Positions 4,307 to 20,740 of a DNA stretch of 34,238 nt are shown here, in pieces. Source of the DNA: an uncultured Gemmatimonadota bacterium (lineage in GTDB: Bacteria > Gemmatimonadota > CAZMKB01); assembly GCA_964566685.1 (NCBI GenBank), contig CAZMKB010000004.1:1-34238 (forward strand). Reading direction: 5' to 3'. Position numbers and translations under genes: made by a program. The notes under the pieces are model-generated. The model searched no databases. It worked only from the letters and a program-made list of their open reading frames with translations, and was not told where the DNA came from. Every line of letters starts with the position of its first letter. Position 1 is the first letter of the stretch.

Positions 4307-4335
4307 TTGACACCTTCCGGCCATCTCATTAGAAT
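4307..4335 (+). promoter_or_regulatory. sigma70-type promoter candidate for the bEBP gene
   Basis: TTGACA (4307-4312), 17-nt spacer, TAGAAT (4330-4335), about 90 nt upstream of ATG 4427. Confidence 0.55.
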
Positions 4336-4426
4336 ATAAGAGGAAGGCTGCCAATATGGCAGGCCGCGGCCTGTCGTACGATGAATAATACGGGCTCAGA
4401 ACATTTGTGGGTGAGGAGGGCAGCAC

Positions 4427-5944
4427 ATGGTGGAAGAGAACGGCCATCTCATCGTCATCAGCCATCACGATCCGGCAGTCGCCCGCCGGATCAGGGATAT
4501 CCTCGGGGAGCGGGGGATTCCCGCCCAGCTCCTGTCCGGAATCGAAGAGCTCGGTCACCACCTGCTCGGGGAGGAGTGCGACCTGGTGATCCTCTCGGGC
4601 GGTCTCCGGGACGAACCAGTCAGGAAGATTCTCAAGAAATTCCGCCGCAGCTCCTTCCGCGGGGCTGTCATCGGGTTCTGGGAGTCAGGATCCATGGAGG
4701 AGGAGGAGCGGCTCGAGCAGCTCGGTGTCGACGAGGTTCTCACGAAGCCCCCCGACCCGAGGGAGGTATTTCTCGTCTCGAAACGGCTCCTCGAGCGGGA
4801 GGACCTCATCCAGCTCACCGGTCTCATCGGAACTTCCCGGGTGATGACCGAGCTCCTCGAAAAGGTCGAGCGATTCGCCCCGGTCAACTCCACGGTCCTG
4901 ATCACCGGAGAGAGCGGGACCGGAAAGGAGCTCGTCGCGAAAGCGCTTCACCGGCTGAGCCCCCGCAGTCACAAACCCTTCATCGCGGTGAACTGCGCCG
5001 CCCTGCCGGAGAGCCTCCTCGAGTCGGAACTCTTCGGGCATGAGAAGGGAGCGTTCACCGGTGCCACCGCCCTCCGGAAGGGGCGGTTCGAGATCGCTCA
5101 CGGCGGGACACTCTTTCTGGATGAGATCGGGGAGATGTCTCTCTCGACGCAGGTCCACCTGCTGAGGGTCCTCGAGGAGCGCGAGCTCATGCGTGTGGGG
5201 GGATCCACACCGATACCCGTCGACGTTCGGGTCGTCGTCGCCACGAACAGGGATATTCGTGAAGAGGTCTCCGCCGGGCGTTTCAGGCGCGACCTGTACT
5301 ACCGGATCAAGGTCCTGATGATCGACGTCCCGCCGCTCCGGGAACGCAGGGAGGACATCCCGCTCCTGGTGAACAAGTTCGTGCGTGAGTTCTGCGAGGA
5401 GAACAGGAGGAGCTTCGCCGGCCTGACCGACGAGGCGCTCGAAGTCCTGGTCAACTATGACTGGCCGGGCAATGTGCGCGAGCTCAGAAATCTGATCGAG
5501 AGCATGCTCGTTCTCTCGCCGGATCACAAGATCAAGCCGTCGGACATTCCCGAGCACATCTTCAAGCGGGGCGATCCCCGGCGGCTCCTGCCCATGCAGG
5601 TCCTCCCCGAGATTCCCGAAGGCAGGAGATTCGAGGCCATTCTCAACGCGCTCCTCGAGATCAAGCACGACGTCGACGAGATCAAGGAAGCCATGCCGGT
5701 GAGGAAGGCCGGCGAGGTCGTTCCGGAATCGGAGGATCGGGAGTTTCCCGGCGGAGAGCCGCGATACCGGGAAGGCGACGGTTACATCAAAATCGTGCCG
5801 GGAACGCCGCTCGAAGAGGTCGAGAAGATCCTCATCGAGGCGACTCTCGACATGGTCGGAGGAAACAGGAGAATGGCATCCGAATTGCTCGGTATCGGAG
5901 AGCGGACTCTCTACCGGAAGATCAAGAACCATCAGCTCACCTGA
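4427..5944 (+). CDS. Sigma54-dependent transcriptional activator (NtrC-family bEBP) with degenerate N-terminal receiver-like domain and C-terminal Fis-type HTH
   Basis: SD GTGAGGAGGG (4411-4420). AAA+ Walker A GESGTGKE, Walker B TLFLDEIGE, sigma54-contact loop GAFTGA, RRDLYYRI arginine-finger region, C-terminal HTH NRRMASELLGIGERTLYRKI. The N-terminal ~120 aa has a CheY-like pattern but lacks the acidic pocket (see findings). Confidence 0.93.
   Translation: MVEENGHLIVISHHDPAVARRIRDILGERGIPAQLLSGIEELGHHLLGEECDLVILSGGLRDEPVRKILKKFRRSSFRGAVIGFWESGSMEEEERLEQLGVDEVLTKPPDPREVFLVSKRLLEREDLIQLTGLIGTSRVMTELLEKVERFAPVNSTVLITGESGTGKELVAKALHRLSPRSHKPFIAVNCAALPESLLESELFGHEKGAFTGATALRKGRFEIAHGGTLFLDEIGEMSLSTQVHLLRVLEERELMRVGGSTPIPVDVRVVVATNRDIREEVSAGRFRRDLYYRIKVLMIDVPPLRERREDIPLLVNKFVREFCEENRRSFAGLTDEALEVLVNYDWPGNVRELRNLIESMLVLSPDHKIKPSDIPEHIFKRGDPRRLLPMQVLPEIPEGRRFEAILNALLEIKHDVDEIKEAMPVRKAGEVVPESEDREFPGGEPRYREGDGYIKIVPGTPLEEVEKILIEATLDMVGGNRRMASELLGIGERTLYRKIKNHQLT
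5874..5889 (+). promoter_or_regulatory. sigma54-type -24/-12 promoter candidate (TGGCAT-N5-TTGCT) upstream of the FG-GAP gene
   Basis: TGGCAT (5874-5879), ccgaa, TTGCT (5885-5889), with GG/GC spacing as in the RpoN consensus TGGCAC-N5-TTGCW. Lies inside the 3' end of the bEBP gene, 64 nt before ATG 5953. Confidence 0.45.
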
Positions 5945-5952
5945 GACGAATC

Positions 5953-7428
5953 ATGAATCACCTCCTCCGCATAGCATTGCCCGTCACGTGGACACTGGTT
6001 CCGCTTTCCGTGCTCACAGCCCAGCTGCCCGGGTTTTCGAGAGCCGATCTGGAGACGAGAGAGGACCCGACCTGGGCGGAGCTCGTCGACCTCGACCACG
6101 ACGACATTCCGGATCTCGTCGTCAGCAACTCGATGAATTTCAGCGAGTACATAACGGTCTTCCTCGCCGACTCGGCGGGTTCGTTCACGCTCTCCGATGA
6201 CTACCTGATCCCCCGGGGTAACGGCGTGCGAAGCTTTTCCACCGGTGACTTCGACGAAGACGGTCATGTCGACGTCCTGGTGCCCTGCTGGCTGTCGGAT
6301 CAGGTGTTCCTGTTCCGGGGCGACGGTGAGGGCGGGCTCGGCGTGCCGGAGGAAATCTGGGCCGGACTCAATCCCGATCCGGTCACCGTCGGCGACTTCA
6401 ACGACGACGGCCACCTCGATTTTGCCGCCTCGAGCTGGATCACGGGATACGTGAATGTCATGCTGGGCACCGGCGACGGGACCTTCCTGGGCCCCGATCC
6501 CTACGACGTGCGGGGAGGGCCGAACTATTCGTGTGTGGATGACTTCAACGAAGACGGAATCGCCGACATCGCAGTCGCCAACTCGACGTTCAATGACGTG
6601 GCGCTGCTCGAGGGCAGGGGAGACGGGACGTTTCTCATCGGGGAAACCTTCGATGTCCTCTACGACGCCTACATGCCCGCTCCCGGCGATTTCAACGAGG
6701 ACGGCCACACCGACATCGCGTGTGCGACCCACCGCTCTCTCTCCATCCTGCACGGGGACGGAAACGGCGGCTTCGAGCGGGTGCAGGATTTCGTGACCGT
6801 CTCCCAGTTCAAGTGGGTGAGGGTAGGTGATTTCAACGAGGACAGGCATGATGACATCGCGCTCTGTATCAGGGAGTATTCGAACGTGGTCATCCTCGAG
6901 GGAAACGGAACGGGGCTGTTCGGCTCGCTCCTGCCGCTTCCGGTCGGCACCAGTCCGCAGTCGCTCGTCATCTCGGACGTTGACCTCGACGGTCACGATG
7001 ACCTGGTCACCGCAGGCGGAGATCCGGGAAGCGTGACCTTTCTCGGAAATGACATGGACGAGAGCCTGACGCTGGAAGTTCCCGACAGAGTAACGGCGGT
7101 GAGGGGAGACACGGGTTTCCTGAACGCCACCCTGGACATCCGGAACCGGAACGACTCGGCGGTCTCCTGTGACCTCTGGCTCACGATTTCGGAAAACGGG
7201 ACGGGAGAGAGGTTCGTCTCGCTCGAACACATCAACTGGCCGGCGAACCCGTTCCCCCTCGCGCTCGATCCGCACGAAACCCTGTCGCTCGGCCTGGCAG
7301 CGGTGACACCGCTCGACTCCGTGTCGGGGAATTACGTTCTCAGGCTGAGGCTGGGGCTCTATCCGGAAACGCTCTACTCCGCGGACTGTTTCGACGTCGT
7401 TCTCCCCACCCATGGCGGGATCGACTGA
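5953..7428 (+). CDS. Secreted FG-GAP/VCBS-repeat protein (predicted 7-bladed beta-propeller) with C-terminal Ig-like region
   Basis: Signal-like N-terminus MNHLLRIALPVTWTLVPLSVLTAQ. Seven Ca-binding-type repeats (DLDHDDIPDLVV, GDFDEDGHVDVLV, GDFNDDGHLDFAA, DDFNEDGIADIAV, GDFNEDGHTDIAC, GDFNEDRHDDIAL, SDVDLDGHDDLVT), mostly at a 147-nt (49-aa) period. Starts 8 nt after the bEBP stop. Confidence 0.85.
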   Translation: MNHLLRIALPVTWTLVPLSVLTAQLPGFSRADLETREDPTWAELVDLDHDDIPDLVVSNSMNFSEYITVFLADSAGSFTLSDDYLIPRGNGVRSFSTGDFDEDGHVDVLVPCWLSDQVFLFRGDGEGGLGVPEEIWAGLNPDPVTVGDFNDDGHLDFAASSWITGYVNVMLGTGDGTFLGPDPYDVRGGPNYSCVDDFNEDGIADIAVANSTFNDVALLEGRGDGTFLIGETFDVLYDAYMPAPGDFNEDGHTDIACATHRSLSILHGDGNGGFERVQDFVTVSQFKWVRVGDFNEDRHDDIALCIREYSNVVILEGNGTGLFGSLLPLPVGTSPQSLVISDVDLDGHDDLVTAGGDPGSVTFLGNDMDESLTLEVPDRVTAVRGDTGFLNATLDIRNRNDSAVSCDLWLTISENGTGERFVSLEHINWPANPFPLALDPHETLSLGLAAVTPLDSVSGNYVLRLRLGLYPETLYSADCFDVVLPTHGGID

Positions 7429-7494: not shown

Positions 7495-7524
7495 TTGACA
7501 CCGGGACGCGCCTCGTGGTATTCT
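7495..7524 (+). promoter_or_regulatory. sigma70-type promoter candidate for the 7599 gene
   Basis: TTGACA (7495-7500), 18-nt spacer ending in TGG, TATTCT (7519-7524), about 75 nt upstream of GTG 7599. Confidence 0.45.
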
Positions 7525-7598
7525 CCTCCACGCCCGGATACTCCGAGATAGCCCGGCTGTGAGACTGACATTACCCGTCCCCGAAAGGAGAAACCGAC

Positions 7599-8099
7599 GT
7601 GAAGAGTTCTGAAAGGGAAGCGATCTGCCGGGCTGTCCGTCCGGCGGCGATTGGCCTCCTTACCCTGATTTGCTGGGGATCTGTCGCCCACGCATCGGAT
7701 TCCGGAGTGACGAAGGACCGATGGTTCATATTCTCGGGGAAGAAACCGGACGGTACGTACGTGGAAAAATGTCTTCTCGTCAACGAGGTGCTCAGGGATG
7801 ACTACGGTCCGGGTACGACAAAACGTGATATGCTGATCGAAGCGGAAGACGGGCAGTCATTCAGAAAAATGGGGACGTATCCGCCTTCTCGCTGGGAACG
7901 GAAGAGGAAACCAACCAGAAAGTACGATTGTGCGGGGCTCGTCTTCGATGAACTCTGGGACAAAGACAAGAAACCCGACGAACCCGGAAAGTACGCTTTC
8001 AAGATAGGGGCGGACAGGTTCTACAAGACCATCATCAAGGAATTCGGAACCGAGGTCGGGAAATTTGACTACATCAACAAAAGCGATGTGGTTGTCTAG
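7599..8099 (+). CDS. Orphan secreted protein, N-terminal part of an amber-interrupted gene; weak NlpC/P60-like Cys motif
   Basis: GTG 7599 with SD AAAGGAG (7584-7590). Signal-like AAIGLLTLICWGSVAHA. YDCAGLV motif (Cys codon 7929-7931). Ends at TAG 8097-8099, and the same frame continues open into the next ORF. Confidence 0.6.
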   Translation: MKSSEREAICRAVRPAAIGLLTLICWGSVAHASDSGVTKDRWFIFSGKKPDGTYVEKCLLVNEVLRDDYGPGTTKRDMLIEAEDGQSFRKMGTYPPSRWERKRKPTRKYDCAGLVFDELWDKDKKPDEPGKYAFKIGADRFYKTIIKEFGTEVGKFDYINKSDVVV

Positions 8100-8123
8100 A
8101 TCAAAGACGGGTCCGCAAAACAC

Positions 8124-9806
8124 GTGGCTCCGGTGATGAACGGCACATACTTTCTGTCGAGTGTCGAGATCCTGACGAAGAACGACAAGGAGAGCACGTT
8201 CCACAACTGGGAATCGCTTCACAGCAGCCGTCACAAGGAACTGCTCAGCATAATTGACAGCTACACCCTCAAACCGGGAGTCGAAACCCGCGGTGTGGAC
8301 GAATTCTACATCAACTTCGGCTTCATCGACCAGGCCGCGATCTACCACATCGACGTCGACAAAATCAAGGTCCGTGAGGCGACGGAGGGTGAATGTCAGC
8401 CGGTCAAAACCAGCGGCTGCGGAGATCCCCATGCCGTAACGGATGAATGGAACCGGGCCGCCCGGGAGGTCATCCCTTCGTTCCCCTTCTTCGACGCCTC
8501 CGAAAAGAGCAAACAGGTCGAGGAAAGCGGGTACGGAACTTCGTGGGACTACTCAGCGGTCATGGACGGCGGCGTCATTCCGATCTCCGACTGGGACGAC
8601 CCGAGCGTGTGGAACGCAGAGAAGGGAGGGAAACCTCATATCATCTTTTCCGCGAAGTGGCATCTATCCTATGACTACAACGGTCCGAAGACTCCTGAAA
8701 AGATGGCGGATCTGTACCAGAGGGTAAGGGACAATGCCAAAGCCTGCGGGGATCGGGGGTGGGATATCCGGGAAGGGGCGTTCGGAGAGAAGTCATGCAT
8801 CGGCTCGTACGCCCACAGGGGGACGATCGATCTCAGCATGGCGTCGGATCCCTACGGCGGGTACGGGAAACTGTACAAGTGCCTCCCCTGTGCAGACATC
8901 TATTCGGAGGTCTCGATACAGATTTTTGCACCACCATCACACGGGTCCCGGAACAAGCCGGAAGTGATCAGAGCCCTGAACGAGTCTGCCCGGGAATACG
9001 CACAGCAGATCGGTATGAAACTGATGGCAATCGCTGAGGGTGCACCGGTTGAACCTCCGCCGACGATGTTCGCGGATGGATCTGGTGAGGGCTCATTCTC
9101 CGGCGAAGGGGAGTCAACCGGTCAGGCCCAGGGAGGGAAAGTGCCTGTTCTGGCCGACGCGCAGGGCAGCGATTCCCGCCGGGGGTCGGGAGAAGATCTG
9201 CCCCTGATGGGATACCCGCAGACCGGCGTCCCGGATGTTCCTCCGGAGGACGACGTGGATCAGGTCATCGCCGATGCGATCGCTTCACTCAGGGAACAGG
9301 GTGGGGGAATGGAAGTCGAGGGAGCGGACGTTCCCACCGGGGGGGAGATGGAGGGGAGAGACTGGAAAACGGATGATCTGGCCTCCTATGAATCGGATGA
9401 CGACCTGCTCTTCGAGGGTGAAGAACTCATGGCCCAGGGTAGGTTTCGTGAAGCGGCGGAGGCATACGAGACAGCCATACGCCGGAATCCGGACAATCCG
9501 GAATACCGCGTTCGTTACGGAGACGTTCACATATTGCAGGGAAACTGGCGGGAAGCCGAGGTGGCCTACCGGAATGCAATCGAGATAGATTCTTCCAGGG
9601 CCGAGTACCACGCACTCCTTGGAGAATCCCTGGTTGAGCAGAGCAGGTGGAGGGAAGCCGAAGCGGCATATCGGGAAGCGATCCGCCTCGAGCCCGATCA
9701 CCCCGGGCACCACGGAATGCTCGGCCTGATCCTGATGGAGCAGGGAAGAGAACAGGAGGGTGAAGCTGCTCTTAAGAAAGCGGAAGAACTCGAATCACAG
9801 TGGTAA
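8124..9806 (+). CDS. Orphan protein with acidic low-complexity linker and C-terminal TPR repeats; same frame as 7599..8099
   Basis: Long ORF in the same frame as the upstream ORF (both starts are multiples of 3 apart). No SD before GTG 8124 or ATG 8136. About four TPR-like 34-aa repeats at the C-terminus (AEAYETAIRRNPDNPEY..., AEVAYRNAIEIDSSRAEY..., AEAAYREAIRLEPDHPGH...). D/E/G-rich linker at ~9060-9420. TAA stop. Confidence 0.6.
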   Translation: MAPVMNGTYFLSSVEILTKNDKESTFHNWESLHSSRHKELLSIIDSYTLKPGVETRGVDEFYINFGFIDQAAIYHIDVDKIKVREATEGECQPVKTSGCGDPHAVTDEWNRAAREVIPSFPFFDASEKSKQVEESGYGTSWDYSAVMDGGVIPISDWDDPSVWNAEKGGKPHIIFSAKWHLSYDYNGPKTPEKMADLYQRVRDNAKACGDRGWDIREGAFGEKSCIGSYAHRGTIDLSMASDPYGGYGKLYKCLPCADIYSEVSIQIFAPPSHGSRNKPEVIRALNESAREYAQQIGMKLMAIAEGAPVEPPPTMFADGSGEGSFSGEGESTGQAQGGKVPVLADAQGSDSRRGSGEDLPLMGYPQTGVPDVPPEDDVDQVIADAIASLREQGGGMEVEGADVPTGGEMEGRDWKTDDLASYESDDDLLFEGEELMAQGRFREAAEAYETAIRRNPDNPEYRVRYGDVHILQGNWREAEVAYRNAIEIDSSRAEYHALLGESLVEQSRWREAEAAYREAIRLEPDHPGHHGMLGLILMEQGREQEGEAALKKAEELESQW

Positions 9807-11139: not shown

Positions 11140-11916
11140 TCAGTGGGGATATGCGTGACCCCGCTGGGACGACACTTTCTCCGTTTTCGGCGCCTTCTCG
11201 ACCATGTCGGGGATCGCCACGGCCACGACTTCGTCCATCGTCCCCACCAGGATGATGTTCAGCTTCTTCTTCACTTCCGGAGGGAGGTCTTCAAGGTTTT
11301 TCTCGTTCCTCTTCGGAATGAGGAGCACCGTCGCTCCGGCACGCAGGGCCGCAACGGCCTTCTCCTTCAGCCCTCCAATGGGAAGGACCCGCCCGCGAAG
11401 TGTTATCTCTCCCGTCATCGCCACGTCCCTGCGGACCGGCAGTTTCAGGAGAGCCGATATCAGCGCCGTGGCGATGGCGATACCGGCGGACGGCCCGTCC
11501 TTGGGAGTGGCTCCTTCCGGGATGTGAACGTGGAGATCGTACTTCTTGTGAAAGTCGTCCTTCAGGCCGAAAACCGGAGAACGTGCCCTGATGTAGGAGA
11601 GCGCGGCTTCGGCCGATTCCTTCATGACATCGCCGAGCTTCCCCGTGAGACTCAGGTTGCCCTTGCCGGGCACGACGGAGACTTCGATCGACAGGATCTC
11701 GCCGCCGGCCTCGGTCCACGCCAGGCCGGTTGCCACACCGACCTCGTCGGCCTCACCGAGCTCCGTCTCGAAGTACTTGCCGGTGCCGAGGAGCTTCCTC
11801 ACCTGCTTCGGGGTTATCGCCGTCCTCTTCGACTCTCCCGCGGTGGCGACCTTCCTCGCGATCTTCCGGCAGACGGTGCTGATCTCGCGCTCGAGATTCC
11901 TGACGCCGGCCTCCCG
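11140..11916 (-). pseudogene. lon: Lon protease, C-terminal fragment (end of AAA+ module plus Ser-Lys proteolytic domain), out of frame with the N-terminal fragment
   Basis: This frame reads [23 protein letters not shown]...[17 protein letters not shown]...[19 protein letters not shown] (catalytic Ser motif)...[11 protein letters not shown]. The track ORF 11140..11802 begins at an internal GTG (Val in full-length Lon). Homology continues upstream in the same frame to ~11916. Confidence 0.88.
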
Positions 11917-13541
11917 CCGCTGATGATCGTCCCGATCGCGTTCCTGCTGAAGGACACCTTCTCCCCGCTGAGGCCATGAGCCTCGAGCTGCTTGGGAATG
12001 AGAAACCGCTTCGCGATCTCCACCTTTTCGCCTTCCAGATATCCCGGAAGCCGGATGACCTCCATCCGGTCGAGGAGGGCGGGGTGGATCGTATAGAGGA
12101 CGTTCGCCGTGGTGATGAAGAGCACCCTCGAGAGGTCGTAGTCGACCTCGAGGTAGTGGTCGCTGAACGCGTTGTTCTGTTCCGGGTCGAGCGCCTCGAG
12201 CAGCGCGGCGGAGGGATCTCCCCTGAAATCGACGGTCATCTTGTCGACCTCGTCGAGGAGCATGACGGGATTCACCGTCCCCGCACGTTTCATCGCCTGG
12301 ATCAGGCGGCCGGGAAGAGCGCCGATGTAGGTGCGCCGGTGCCCGCGAATCTCAGCCTCGTCCCTGATGCCCCCGAGCGAGATCCTGACGAATTTTCTCG
12401 AGAGAGCCCGGGCGATGGAGCGGCCGAGCGACGTCTTTCCGACTCCGGGAGGCCCCACGAGGCAGAGAATGGGACCCTTCATCCTGCCGACGAGCTTGAG
12501 GACCGAGATGTATTCGATGATCCGCTCCTTCGCCTTCTCGAGGCCGTAGTGGTCCTCGTCGAGAATCCTCGCGACCTCCTTCACCGACAGGTTGTCCTTC
12601 GTCCGCTTCTTCCAGGGGATCCCGAGCAGCCAGTCCAGGTAGTTCCTCGTGACGGTCGCTTCGGGCGAGAGCGGGGCCATTTTCGACAACTTTCTGATCT
12701 CCCTGTCGACCTTCTCCCGCACTTCCTTCGGCAGTCCCGCCGAGTCGGCTTTCTCCTGCAGCTCGATGATCTCGTCACCCTGATCCTCGGCGTCGCCGAG
12801 CTCCTTGTAGATGGCCTTCAGCTGCTCCTGCAGATAGAATTCCTTCTGGTTCTTGAGGACCTGTGTCTTGACCTCACCCTCGATCTTGCGCTCGAGCTTG
12901 AGGATTTCGATTTCGGATACCAGGATGCGGTTGATCTGCTCGAAGCCTTTGTAGAGCGTCTGCTTCTCAAGCAGCTCGACCTTGTCCGGGAGCTTGAGGA
13001 TGAGGTGACTCGAGATCAGGTACAGCAGGCGGCTGTTGTCGACGACGTTCTGCAGGGTGGTGAGCAACTCGTCGGGGAGCCGCTTGTTGAGCTTGACATA
13101 CTCTTCGAACAACCCCACGGCGCGCCGGGCGACCGCCTCGATTTTCTTGCCCTTCTCTTCGACCACCGGATAGAGCTCTATTTCAGCTTCCAGGAACTCC
13201 TCCTCCTGCGGGTATGAAATCGCTTTCGCACGCTCGATGCCCTCGATGAGAACCTTGATCGTGCCGTTCGGGAGCTTCACCATCTGGAGGATGCGCGAGA
13301 CGGTGCCGACGGAGTAGAGATCGGACGGCTCGGGCTCCGCTATGTCGCTCTCGAGCTGGGGGACCAGGAAGAGGAACTTGTCACCGAGCATGGCGTGCTC
13401 GAGCGCCGAAATGGAGGCCTCCCTGCCGACGAGGAGCGGGACCACCATGTTCGGGTAGATGACGACGTCGCGCAGCGGGATGGTGGGAAGAACTTCCTGT
13501 ATCTCCAGGTGTTCGCCGTCTTTTACGGTCGTGAGTGTCAT
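11814..13541 (-). pseudogene. lon: Lon protease, N-terminal substrate-binding domain plus AAA+ module, terminating prematurely after a frame disruption near 11911-11920
   Basis: IPLRDVVIYPNMVVPLLVGR (Lon N domain), Walker A GPPGVGKTSLGRSIA, Walker B MLLDEVDK. After ...[10 protein letters not shown] the translation degrades to Arg/Ser/Pro-rich sequence ([19 protein letters not shown]...) until TAA at 11814. ATG 13541 abuts the clpX stop (TAAATG). Confidence 0.9.
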
Positions 13542-18493: not shown

Positions 18494-20416
18494 TCACGAC
18501 TCTTTGTTTTCTTCGTCAACCACTTCGTATTCTGCATCGACGACGTCTTCTTCCTGCTTCGCCTGTCCGCCTTCCTCCCCGGCTTCCCCTGCACCTTCTG
18601 CGGACTGCGCCTGCTGCTGTTGCTGCTGGTACATCGTGCTCGCGACCTGGTGCCAGGTGTTCTGGAGGTCCTCCGTGGCACGGTTTATCTCGTTCATGTC
18701 AGCACCCTTGAGCGCGCTCCTGGTGCGCTCGATCGCAGCTTCGATCTTCGCCTTATCCTCGGCTCCGACCTTGTCTCCGAGCTCCTTCAGCTGCTTCTCC
18801 GTCTGGTAGACCATCGAGTCCGCCTTGTTCCGGGCGTCGATCTCCTGCTTCCGCTGCTGGTCCTCGGCCGCGTGGGCATCGGCATCCTTCACCATGCGAT
18901 CGATCTCGGCCTCGCTCAGACCGCTCGAAGCCTCGATCTTGATCGACTGCTCCTTGCCGGTGGCTTTGTCCTTCGCCGACACGTTGAGGATTCCGTTCGC
19001 GTCGATGTCGAATGTGACTTCGATCTGCGGAACACCACGGGGAGCCGGAGGGATTCCGGTGAGCTGGAACCGTCCGATCGTCTTGTTGCCGGCGGCCATC
19101 TCGCGCTCGCCCTGCAGCACGTGTATCTCGACGGTCGTCTGATTGTCCTCTGCCGTGCTGAAGACCTCGCTCTTCTTCGTGGGGATGGTCGTGTTCCGGT
19201 CGATGAGCTTCGTGAACACTCCTCCCAGGGTTTCGATACCGAGCGAGAGCGGCGTCACGTCGAGCAGCAGCACATCCTTGACCTCGCCGGCCAGGACCCC
19301 GCCCTGAATCGCGGCGCCTATCGCAACGACCTCGTCGGGGTTGACGCCCCTGTGCGGCTCCCTGCCGAAGAGCTCCTTGACCAGCTCCTGCACCTTCGGC
19401 ATTCTCGTCGCGCCGCCGACCAGGATGACTTCGTCGATGTCGTCCTTGGTCATGCCGGCGTCTTCGAGCGCTTTCCGGCACGGTCCCACCGTTCTCTGGA
19501 TGAGATCGTCGACCAGCTCTTCCAGCTTGGCCCTCGAAAGCGTCAGGTTCAGATGCTTGGGTCCGCTCGCGTCGGCCGTGATGAACGGAAGATTGATATC
19601 CGTTTTCGGAACGGTCGACAGCTCGCACTTCGCTTTCTCGGCCGCTTCCTTGAGCCGCTGCAGGGCCATCGGGTCCTTCTTCAGATCGATCCCCTCCTGT
19701 TTCTTGAACTCGGCCACCAGCCAGTCTATGATCCTCTGATCGAAATCATCTCCACCGAGATGAGTGTCACCGTTGGTGGCCTTGACTTCGAAGACTCCGT
19801 CACCGAGCTCGAGTATGGAGATGTCGAAGGTACCGCCACCGAGATCGAACACGGCTATCTTCTCGTCCTTCTTCTTGTCGAGTCCGTAGGCGAGCGATGC
19901 GGCAGTGGGTTCGTTGATGATCCGCAGCACCTCGAGTCCCGCTATCTTTCCCGCATCCTTCGTCGCCTGGCGCTGGCTGTCGTTGAAGTACGCCGGTACG
20001 GTAATGACCGCCTGCGTGACCTTCTGTCCGAGATAGTCCTCGGCGGTCTGTTTCATTTTCTGGAGAATCATGGCGGAAATCTCGGGAGGCGTGTGTTCCT
20101 TGCCGCCGGCCTTCACCCGCGCATCTCCGTTGGGCCCCGACACGACCTCGTAGGGGACCTTCTGTATCTCCTCGGAAACCTCTCCGTACTTCCTTCCCAC
20201 GAATCGTTTTATCGAGAAGACGGTGTTCTCCGGATTGGTGATGGCCTGCCGTTTTGCTACCTGGCCGGTCAGGCGTTCACCTTCCTTGCTGAATGCCACG
20301 ACCGACGGTGTCGTCCGACTCCCCTCGGCATTGGCTATGACGACCGGATCGCCGCCTTCCATGACAGCCACACAGGAATTGGTCGTACCCAGGTCGATTC
20401 CGATCACTTTACTCAT
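18494..20416 (-). CDS. dnaK: Molecular chaperone DnaK (Hsp70)
   Basis: [18 protein letters not shown]..., [23 protein letters not shown]-terminal lid and [14 protein letters not shown] tail. SD GAGGTG lies 6 nt before ATG 20416. Confidence 0.98.
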
Positions 20417-20483: not shown

Positions 20484-20499
20484 AGCAAGGTCTGTGCCA
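20484..20499 (-). promoter_or_regulatory. sigma54-type -24/-12 promoter candidate (TGGCAC-N5-TTGCT) facing dnaK
   Basis: The minus strand reads gTGGCACagaccTTGCTc (20499 down to 20484). The motif ends 68 nt upstream of the dnaK ATG, giving a predicted leader of ~57 nt. Confidence 0.5.
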
Positions 20500-20740
20500 C
20501 AAAAAGGCCTTGATTTTTCCTTTGCGAGAACTATAAGAGAGAGAGGGGCTTTCGGACATTCGCCGGCATCGGCTCCCCATCGCCGTGGGCGATGGGGGAA
20601 AGCGTGGTGTGTCAGACTGGCAGTATTCTCCCGGAAATGCTGTCAATGCGGCATCCTGGCCGGTCGATCCTGCGATCATGGCAGGATGATCACGTGCGAA
20701 AAACTGTGAGGCACATTTTCTGGGGTGAGAATCTGTGAAG

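Follow-up and report, generated by a model that had tools for sequence, protein, structure and literature searches.

Does a sigma-54-type core that lies within the coding sequence of an activator gene act as a promoter of the next gene, or is it a by-product of the protein encoded there? The question arises from a 34,238-nt stretch of DNA of an uncultured Gemmatimonadota bacterium (in the following: the window), in which a gene for a sigma-54 activator (bacterial enhancer-binding protein, bEBP) is followed after 8 nt by a gene for an FG-GAP/VCBS beta-propeller protein. Within the bEBP codons, on the forward strand, we find TGGCATccgaaTTGCT (i.e., TGGCATCCGAATTGCT), an exact sigma-54 core. An earlier note on this DNA had suggested an activator-target pair, in which the bEBP may switch on the propeller gene from this internal promoter. 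Features are summarized in Table 1.

Table 1. Positions of the features discussed (window coordinates).
Feature	Position	Strand	Basis or remark
sigma-70-type promoter of the bEBP gene, TTGACA-17-TAGAAT (11/12)	4307..4335	+	promoter scan
perfect palindrome CTGCCAATATGGCAG (CTGCCA-N3-TGGCAG)	4348..4362	.	just downstream of the bEBP sigma-70 promoter
bEBP gene, 505 aa	4427..5944	+	Sigma54_activat AAA+ with GAFTGA, AAA_lid, C-terminal HTH_8
candidate sigma-54 -24/-12 core TGGCAT-N5-TTGCT	5874..5889	+	sequence match; synonymous-site conservation in relatives
bEBP stop codon and 8-nt spacer	5942..5952	+	GAGG/GGAGG Shine-Dalgarno overlaps the stop in relatives
FG-GAP/VCBS beta-propeller gene, 491 aa	5953..7428	+	Pfam; N-terminal signal-like segment
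dnaK sigma-54 core	20485..20499	-	69 nt before the start codon of dnaK (18494-20416)
palindrome, 2 mismatches	20609-20623		dnaK region
palindrome, 1 mismatch	20670..20684	.	171-185 nt upstream of the dnaK sigma-54 core

The core in its coding and genomic context

We compared the motif with the consensus TGGCAC-N5-TTGCW, whose GG and GC are 10 nt apart. The motif matches it, with GG at 5875-5876 and GC at 5887-5888, i.e., at the same spacing. It is read in frame as A-TG GCA TCC GAA TTG CT-C, that is, as M483-A-S-E-L-L488 of the 505-aa bEBP, and ends about 64-65 nt before the FG-GAP start codon (ATG at 5953), which in turn follows the bEBP stop (5942-5944) after the 8-nt gap. Re-reading the sequence thus reproduced the match, its coordinates, the 8-nt gap and the 64-nt distance as noted earlier. 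From the usual 12-nt distance, a transcription start is predicted at about 5899-5901, which would give a leader of about 53 nt. The residues M-A-S-E-L-L presumably belong to the first helix of the HTH and not to its recognition helix, as we assume for Fis-type HTH domains. The closest solved DNA-binding domain, that of the NtrC-family regulator 4L5E, has LASEILG at the corresponding position, so M/L-A-S is ordinary for the HTH fold.

The host gene can be assigned to the NtrC family by its AAA+ domain with GAFTGA and its C-terminal Fis-type HTH (Pfam PF00158 Sigma54_activat, 2.9e-73; PF02954 HTH_8, 9.5e-12, residues 462-500). In its N-terminal region, no Pfam match to Response_reg was obtained at E<=0.001, and PF00072 is present in some distant orthologues. 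By eye, the N-terminal 125 residues (4427-4800) look receiver-like, the usual position of the phospho-acceptor Asp reading DLVILS. Throughout the phylum, orthologues of the bEBP occur in single copy. They share about 50% identity along the entire protein, are well separated from paralogues and usually have gcvT upstream of the gene. An FG-GAP gene directly behind it is observed in one family (f1) only, to which the genome under study (G000) belongs.

Some side observations concern the surroundings of the two genes. In the relative G001, the FG-GAP gene falls into two ORFs that overlap and use separate frames (651-1487 and 1-714 of L012 1-1487), which points to a frameshift or else to an error in the MAG assembly; the core is kept there, a point of caution for the internal-promoter reading. 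In the window, two additional forward genes (7495-9806) are found between the FG-GAP gene and the convergent p210 gene, namely a 166-aa ORF without Pfam match and a 560-aa TPR protein; relatives with sequence past the FG-GAP gene do not have these two genes there. A sigma-70-like promoter, TTGACA-18-TATTCT, is found at 7495-7524. Finally, Lon appears as two ORFs on the reverse strand (11140-13541), i.e., 11814-13541 with the substrate-binding and AAA domains and without Lon_C, followed by a 220-aa ORF (11140-11802), and a similar split is seen in L206.

With regard to the genome, a 3.67-Mb MAG of 410 contigs with 61% G+C, sigma-54 itself is encoded (rpoN on contig C174, 209.7 bits). The pattern TGGCAY-N5-TTGC has three matches in the window, while 0.05 are expected; the two besides the candidate are located in the dnaK/glycan intergenic region. 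In the whole genome, 40 matches were obtained, 29 of them intergenic and 11 coding when split by our own crude gene calls (87% coding, 13% non-coding). Control patterns with the same core and spacers of 3, 4, 6 or 7 nt gave 0-3 matches, and the reversed pattern gave 16, of which 13 are coding. Taken together, the intergenic enrichment and both types of controls imply that this consensus is clearly used in the genome. Since the 11 coding matches compare with 13 for the reversed control, one match within a gene cannot count as evidence by itself.

Core matches across the genome cluster in intergenic DNA 26-197 nt ahead of genes. We also related the candidate to the 22 good intergenic sites of the genome. 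These sit 26-367 nt before start codons, and the candidate fits with respect to both distance and orientation. In 21/22 of them a purine follows TGGCAY, and the stretch after TTGC is poor in G. The candidate shows a C after TGGCAY and, behind TTGC, two Gs at positions that are G in 0/22 sites; this C and the GG are dictated by the codons for Ser and Gly. Its non-core score of -4.0 (intergenic sites: median 4.1, range -6.7 to 10.8) is typical of chance coding matches, with only 2/22 intergenic sites scoring lower. The core is perfect, but its surrounding context appears poor.

The FG-GAP gene is very likely co-transcribed with the bEBP gene from the sigma-70 promoter of the latter, judging from the sequence features of the locus. 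TTGACA boxes are found at the equivalent place upstream of the bEBP in all relatives, and our scan returned no terminator between the two genes. Given the strong promoter, the 8-nt gap and the missing terminator, plain co-transcription could suffice for the FG-GAP gene. This leads to a first alternative, i.e., that the core has no function of its own but is a chance product of HTH_8 codons, which supply GGC...TGC anyway, kept by descent, the FG-GAP gene being expressed only via the bEBP operon from the promoter at 4307-4335. The Shine-Dalgarno sequence over the stop codon fits this alternative as well, and so do the control-like number of coding core matches and the poor context of the candidate.

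Conservation and codon choice among relatives

The f1 lineages were drawn from two GTDB genomes, protein-database matches and their contigs. The resulting sample comprises about 10 mutually related lineages. Eight of them carry the FG-GAP gene (G000, G001, G002, P0003/L205, P0004, P0059/L207, L206, P0007), which starts 7-10 nt past the bEBP stop in all eight, while the sisters P0005 and P0008 lack it and have the convergent p210 gene directly next. The f1 tree is star-like, with G000 branching first (support 83/89) and P0005/P0008 nested, so the loss of the FG-GAP gene looks secondary. A short FG-GAP-like gene without bEBP or core (L208, P0146) lies on a low-coverage contig and was left out. 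Searching the genome contigs for the FG-GAP protein yielded only distant propellers with 25-39% identity and no f1 relatives; a metagenome scan with the patterns NYDWPGN and GESGTGKE, which are common to all bEBPs, likewise returned distant paralogues only and no f1 member.

The nine f1 bEBP orthologues are 67-84% identical in protein sequence (about 70% typically). Their codon identity at conserved 4/6-fold sites is 0.26-0.56, or 0.26-0.45 save for the closest pairs. The latter range is near the codon-bias baseline, and f1 synonymous sites are thus near saturation. Despite that, the exact core is kept in 7/8 lineages with the FG-GAP gene (7/10 f1 lineages overall). Within the motif, core-bearing lineages differ only in the N5 spacer (TCC/TCT, GAA/GAT/CAA), in contrast to the free variation at synonymous sites nearby. 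In L206, where Leu replaces Met, the Leu is encoded by CTG such that TGGCA is preserved. Two core bases each are lost in the two lineages without the FG-GAP gene, P0005 (GCT, CTG) and P0008 (ATA, CTG), and in P0007 (GCT, CTG) despite the FG-GAP gene being present. Among the outcomes that would speak against its reading, the earlier note had named a motif lost by synonymous changes in orthologues with conserved protein sequence; we instead observe survival wherever the FG-GAP gene follows, with one exception, and decay in both lineages where it does not. The exception supports the operon-only alternative, since P0007 keeps the FG-GAP gene without the core and co-transcription must suffice in this lineage. 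We rejected a recent transfer of the bEBP 3' end together with the FG-GAP gene as the cause of the conservation, given that the flanking synonymous sites vary freely and that identity between the FG-GAP proteins is no more than 53-62%.

To what extent does the protein sequence itself dictate the core? In f1 bEBP genes, TTG accounts for 5% of the Leu codons and GCA for 21% of the Ala codons. From codon usage alone, the chance that M-A-S-E-L-L spells the core is 0.21 x 0.70 x 0.05 x 0.95, i.e., about 0.007 per lineage. TTG is nevertheless found at L487 in 6/9 sequences; among 40 invariant Leu columns, it is absent in 33 and occurs a single time in 6. We performed 961 codon-by-column binomial tests, where TTG at L487 is the top outlier (naive p 1e-6), while GCA at A484 ranks 5th and TCC at S485 13th. 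The p-values ignore phylogeny, for which the rank among columns of the same gene and the same tree provides a fair control. When assessed by sliding-window excess codon identity, the motif window (aa 480-489) ranks only about 13th. This measure is dominated by common codons, and the per-codon test was used in its place.

The amino-acid choice contributes as well. Two residues are specific for f1, i.e., M where other families have K/Q/R and S where others have A; M supplies the T before GG and S supplies the Y of TGGCAY. The conserved x-A-A/S-x-[LM]-L already yields a GG-N10-GC skeleton in many orthologues, a further point for a mere product of HTH codons. Against it, about 60 other HTH_8-coding segments in the loci gathered show no match to the core, not even a loose one, and TGGCAY-N5-TTGCTNGG is found in HTH regions of f1 only (loci examined, 400 genomes of the phylum).

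Overall, the core is kept across species to a degree that the encoded protein does not call for. The operon-only alternative has to explain why rare TTG and GCA persist at core positions (1st and 5th of 961) near saturation while their neighbours vary, and why the M-to-L replacement of L206 uses CTG, which keeps the core. We consider it unlikely for these reasons. The rare synonymous codons kept by relatives rather suggest that the core is probably a real internal promoter.

A comparable case was encountered in f3 genomes, where a conserved gene that encodes ...NALWSFGPHDVSVALYLLGE... holds a TGGCAC-N5-TTGC core around position 1501 of loci L214-L236. GCA and TTG are used here as well, and the core is found in 8/9 and 9/11 genomes of two genera, which makes it a possible second case of a conserved sigma-54 site within a gene.

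The bEBP, the palindrome at its promoter and the chaperone genes

We also asked which activator could serve the internal core. The adjacent bEBP is the obvious candidate, and a palindrome just downstream of its own sigma-70 promoter (Table 1) points to the site it would bind. This palindrome is found with 0 mismatches 44-79 nt before the bEBP start in 8/8 f1 loci with upstream sequence, and with 0-1 mismatch upstream of f2 bEBP orthologues. In the whole genome of G000 only six matches with <=1 mismatch exist, four of them intergenic, i.e., the bEBP operator, the one at 20670-20684 and two on contig C21. The latter two (19051-19089) lie 91-129 nt upstream of a sigma-54 core heading hsp20-grpE-dnaJ. 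In relatives, the arrangement recurs at hsp20 (G002) and dnaK (G005), where the palindrome precedes a sigma-54 core by about 100-125 nt. From its position and recurrence, the palindrome at 4348-4362 is likely both operator and activator-binding site.

Hence, the bEBP is likely an autoregulated activator of sigma-54 chaperone promoters, i.e., those of dnaK and hsp20-grpE-dnaJ. This is at odds with its earlier description as an orphan, as the palindromes near the sigma-54 cores of both transcription units provide it with likely targets. The suggestion that it may act on the control region at 20.4-21.1 kb, in turn, gains support, since the palindrome of the bEBP promoter recurs upstream of the dnaK sigma-54 core.

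For the internal core, the situation differs. Activator sites (UAS) usually lie about 80-200 nt upstream of a sigma-54 core. No palindrome with up to 3 mismatches is present inside any f1 bEBP gene, and the one nearest to the internal core is the bEBP operator itself, 1.5 kb upstream. That is, none is found at about 80-200 nt, although sites of other activators may exist; roughly 19 bEBPs were found in G000. The core may be served from the distant operator, by another of these bEBPs or by activator in solution. The codon alignment shows no conserved inverted repeat in 5400-5874. Inverted repeats in 5400-5960 were also tried as activator site and rejected since they are not conserved in this alignment. 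We further considered whether the motif is a degenerate copy of the palindrome; it holds one TGGCA half-site only, which leaves the conserved TTGC unexplained. With regard to the proposed activator-target pair, the internal promoter is supported by the conservation of the internal core along with the FG-GAP gene. The pairing with this particular bEBP is not, given that no palindrome lies inside the gene and the nearest is 1.5 kb away.

The missing proximal site fits a second alternative, in which the core binds sigma-54 holoenzyme or is otherwise constrained, though not as a promoter of the FG-GAP gene, e.g., as a closed-complex block or insulator of read-through or by an RNA or translation role of the rare TTG close to the 3' end of the bEBP gene. 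The sigma-54 holoenzyme binds DNA in an inactive state, most intragenic sites of E. coli are without an assigned transcript (PMC4591121), and a conservation test reveals constraint, not its cause. On the other hand, TGGCA and TTGC are jointly constrained at the exact sigma-54 spacing, which is more than a single codon, and the core decays where the FG-GAP gene is absent, tying it to the downstream gene. Furthermore, a roadblock within this gene would also cut short the mRNA of the bEBP itself. We therefore rate this alternative as slightly less probable than expression via the operon only.

A probable promoter within an activator gene

We thus favor the internal promoter, i.e., that the motif at 5874-5889 is probably a functional sigma-54 site which gives the FG-GAP gene activator-dependent expression atop the read-through. 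Under this reading, sigma-54 holoenzyme would bind 5874-5889 and, on activation, initiate transcription near 5900. With the 15 final codons of the bEBP and the 8-nt spacer, the leader would measure about 53 nt, and a conditional expression of the secreted propeller would be added to basal read-through from the bEBP sigma-70 promoter. The core may have been built into the first HTH helix in one family, once the FG-GAP gene had become the downstream neighbour at a distance of 8 nt. Two replacements (K/Q/R to M, A to S) would have supplied the flanking T's of TGGCAT, and the A in TGGCA and the initial T in TTGC would have come from the unusual codons GCA and TTG.

A further step would be that this promoter was born de novo in the HTH codons after a promoterless FG-GAP gene had been inserted, and that it is fired by the same bEBP, either from the operator 1.5 kb upstream or by high local concentration. 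We regard this combined scenario as rather doubtful. If true, it would draw a secreted propeller into the sigma-54 chaperone stress regulon of dnaK and hsp20-grpE-dnaJ.

Intragenic sigma-54 promoters are an already known kind. In E. coli, sigma-54 commonly binds within genes (PMC4591121), validated promoters being nagB->nagE, yqeC->yqeB and rlmD->relA (Bonocora et al. 2015, PMC4591121), and intragenic promoters that drive a downstream gene are described for E. coli and Salmonella (Bonocora et al. 2015, PMC4591121; Samuels et al. 2013, PMC3844500). The case at hand shares with them a sense -24/-12 core in the upstream gene that is conserved across species and would serve the next gene. It differs in its predicted leader (about 53 nt compared to 360-760 nt) and in its host, which is a sigma-54 activator whose HTH codons overlap the core. 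While function was assigned there from ChIP or transcripts, it is deduced here from synonymous-site conservation. Particular to the present locus are thus the short leader and the use of the activator's HTH codons.

A second comparison is provided by NtrC-family bEBPs with an adjacent sigma-54 operon, e.g., glnAp2 with its NtrC sites. Here as well, the bEBP adjoins a gene with a sigma-54 core, has the canonical AAA+ GAFTGA and Fis-type HTH, and carries a palindrome at its own promoter, which is consistent with autoregulation. In contrast to the canonical systems, it has no receiver match and no adjacent kinase gene, and no activator site is found 80-200 nt from the core, the sole palindrome lying 1.5 kb upstream. 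The latter also sets the FG-GAP core apart from the genome's own dnaK and hsp20-grpE-dnaJ promoters, which combine palindrome and core.

If real, the site would be a clean natural example of dual coding, in which 16 nt encode part of an activator's DNA-binding domain as well as a sigma-54 promoter, with the cost visible in the choice of amino acids and codons. It would show that a newly inserted gene without intergenic space can acquire conditional expression, and it would extend the validated enterobacterial intragenic sigma-54 promoters to Gemmatimonadota. Probably more useful is the side result of this analysis, i.e., that the phylum-wide, gcvT-adjacent bEBP is likely an autoregulated chaperone activator with a defined palindromic site.
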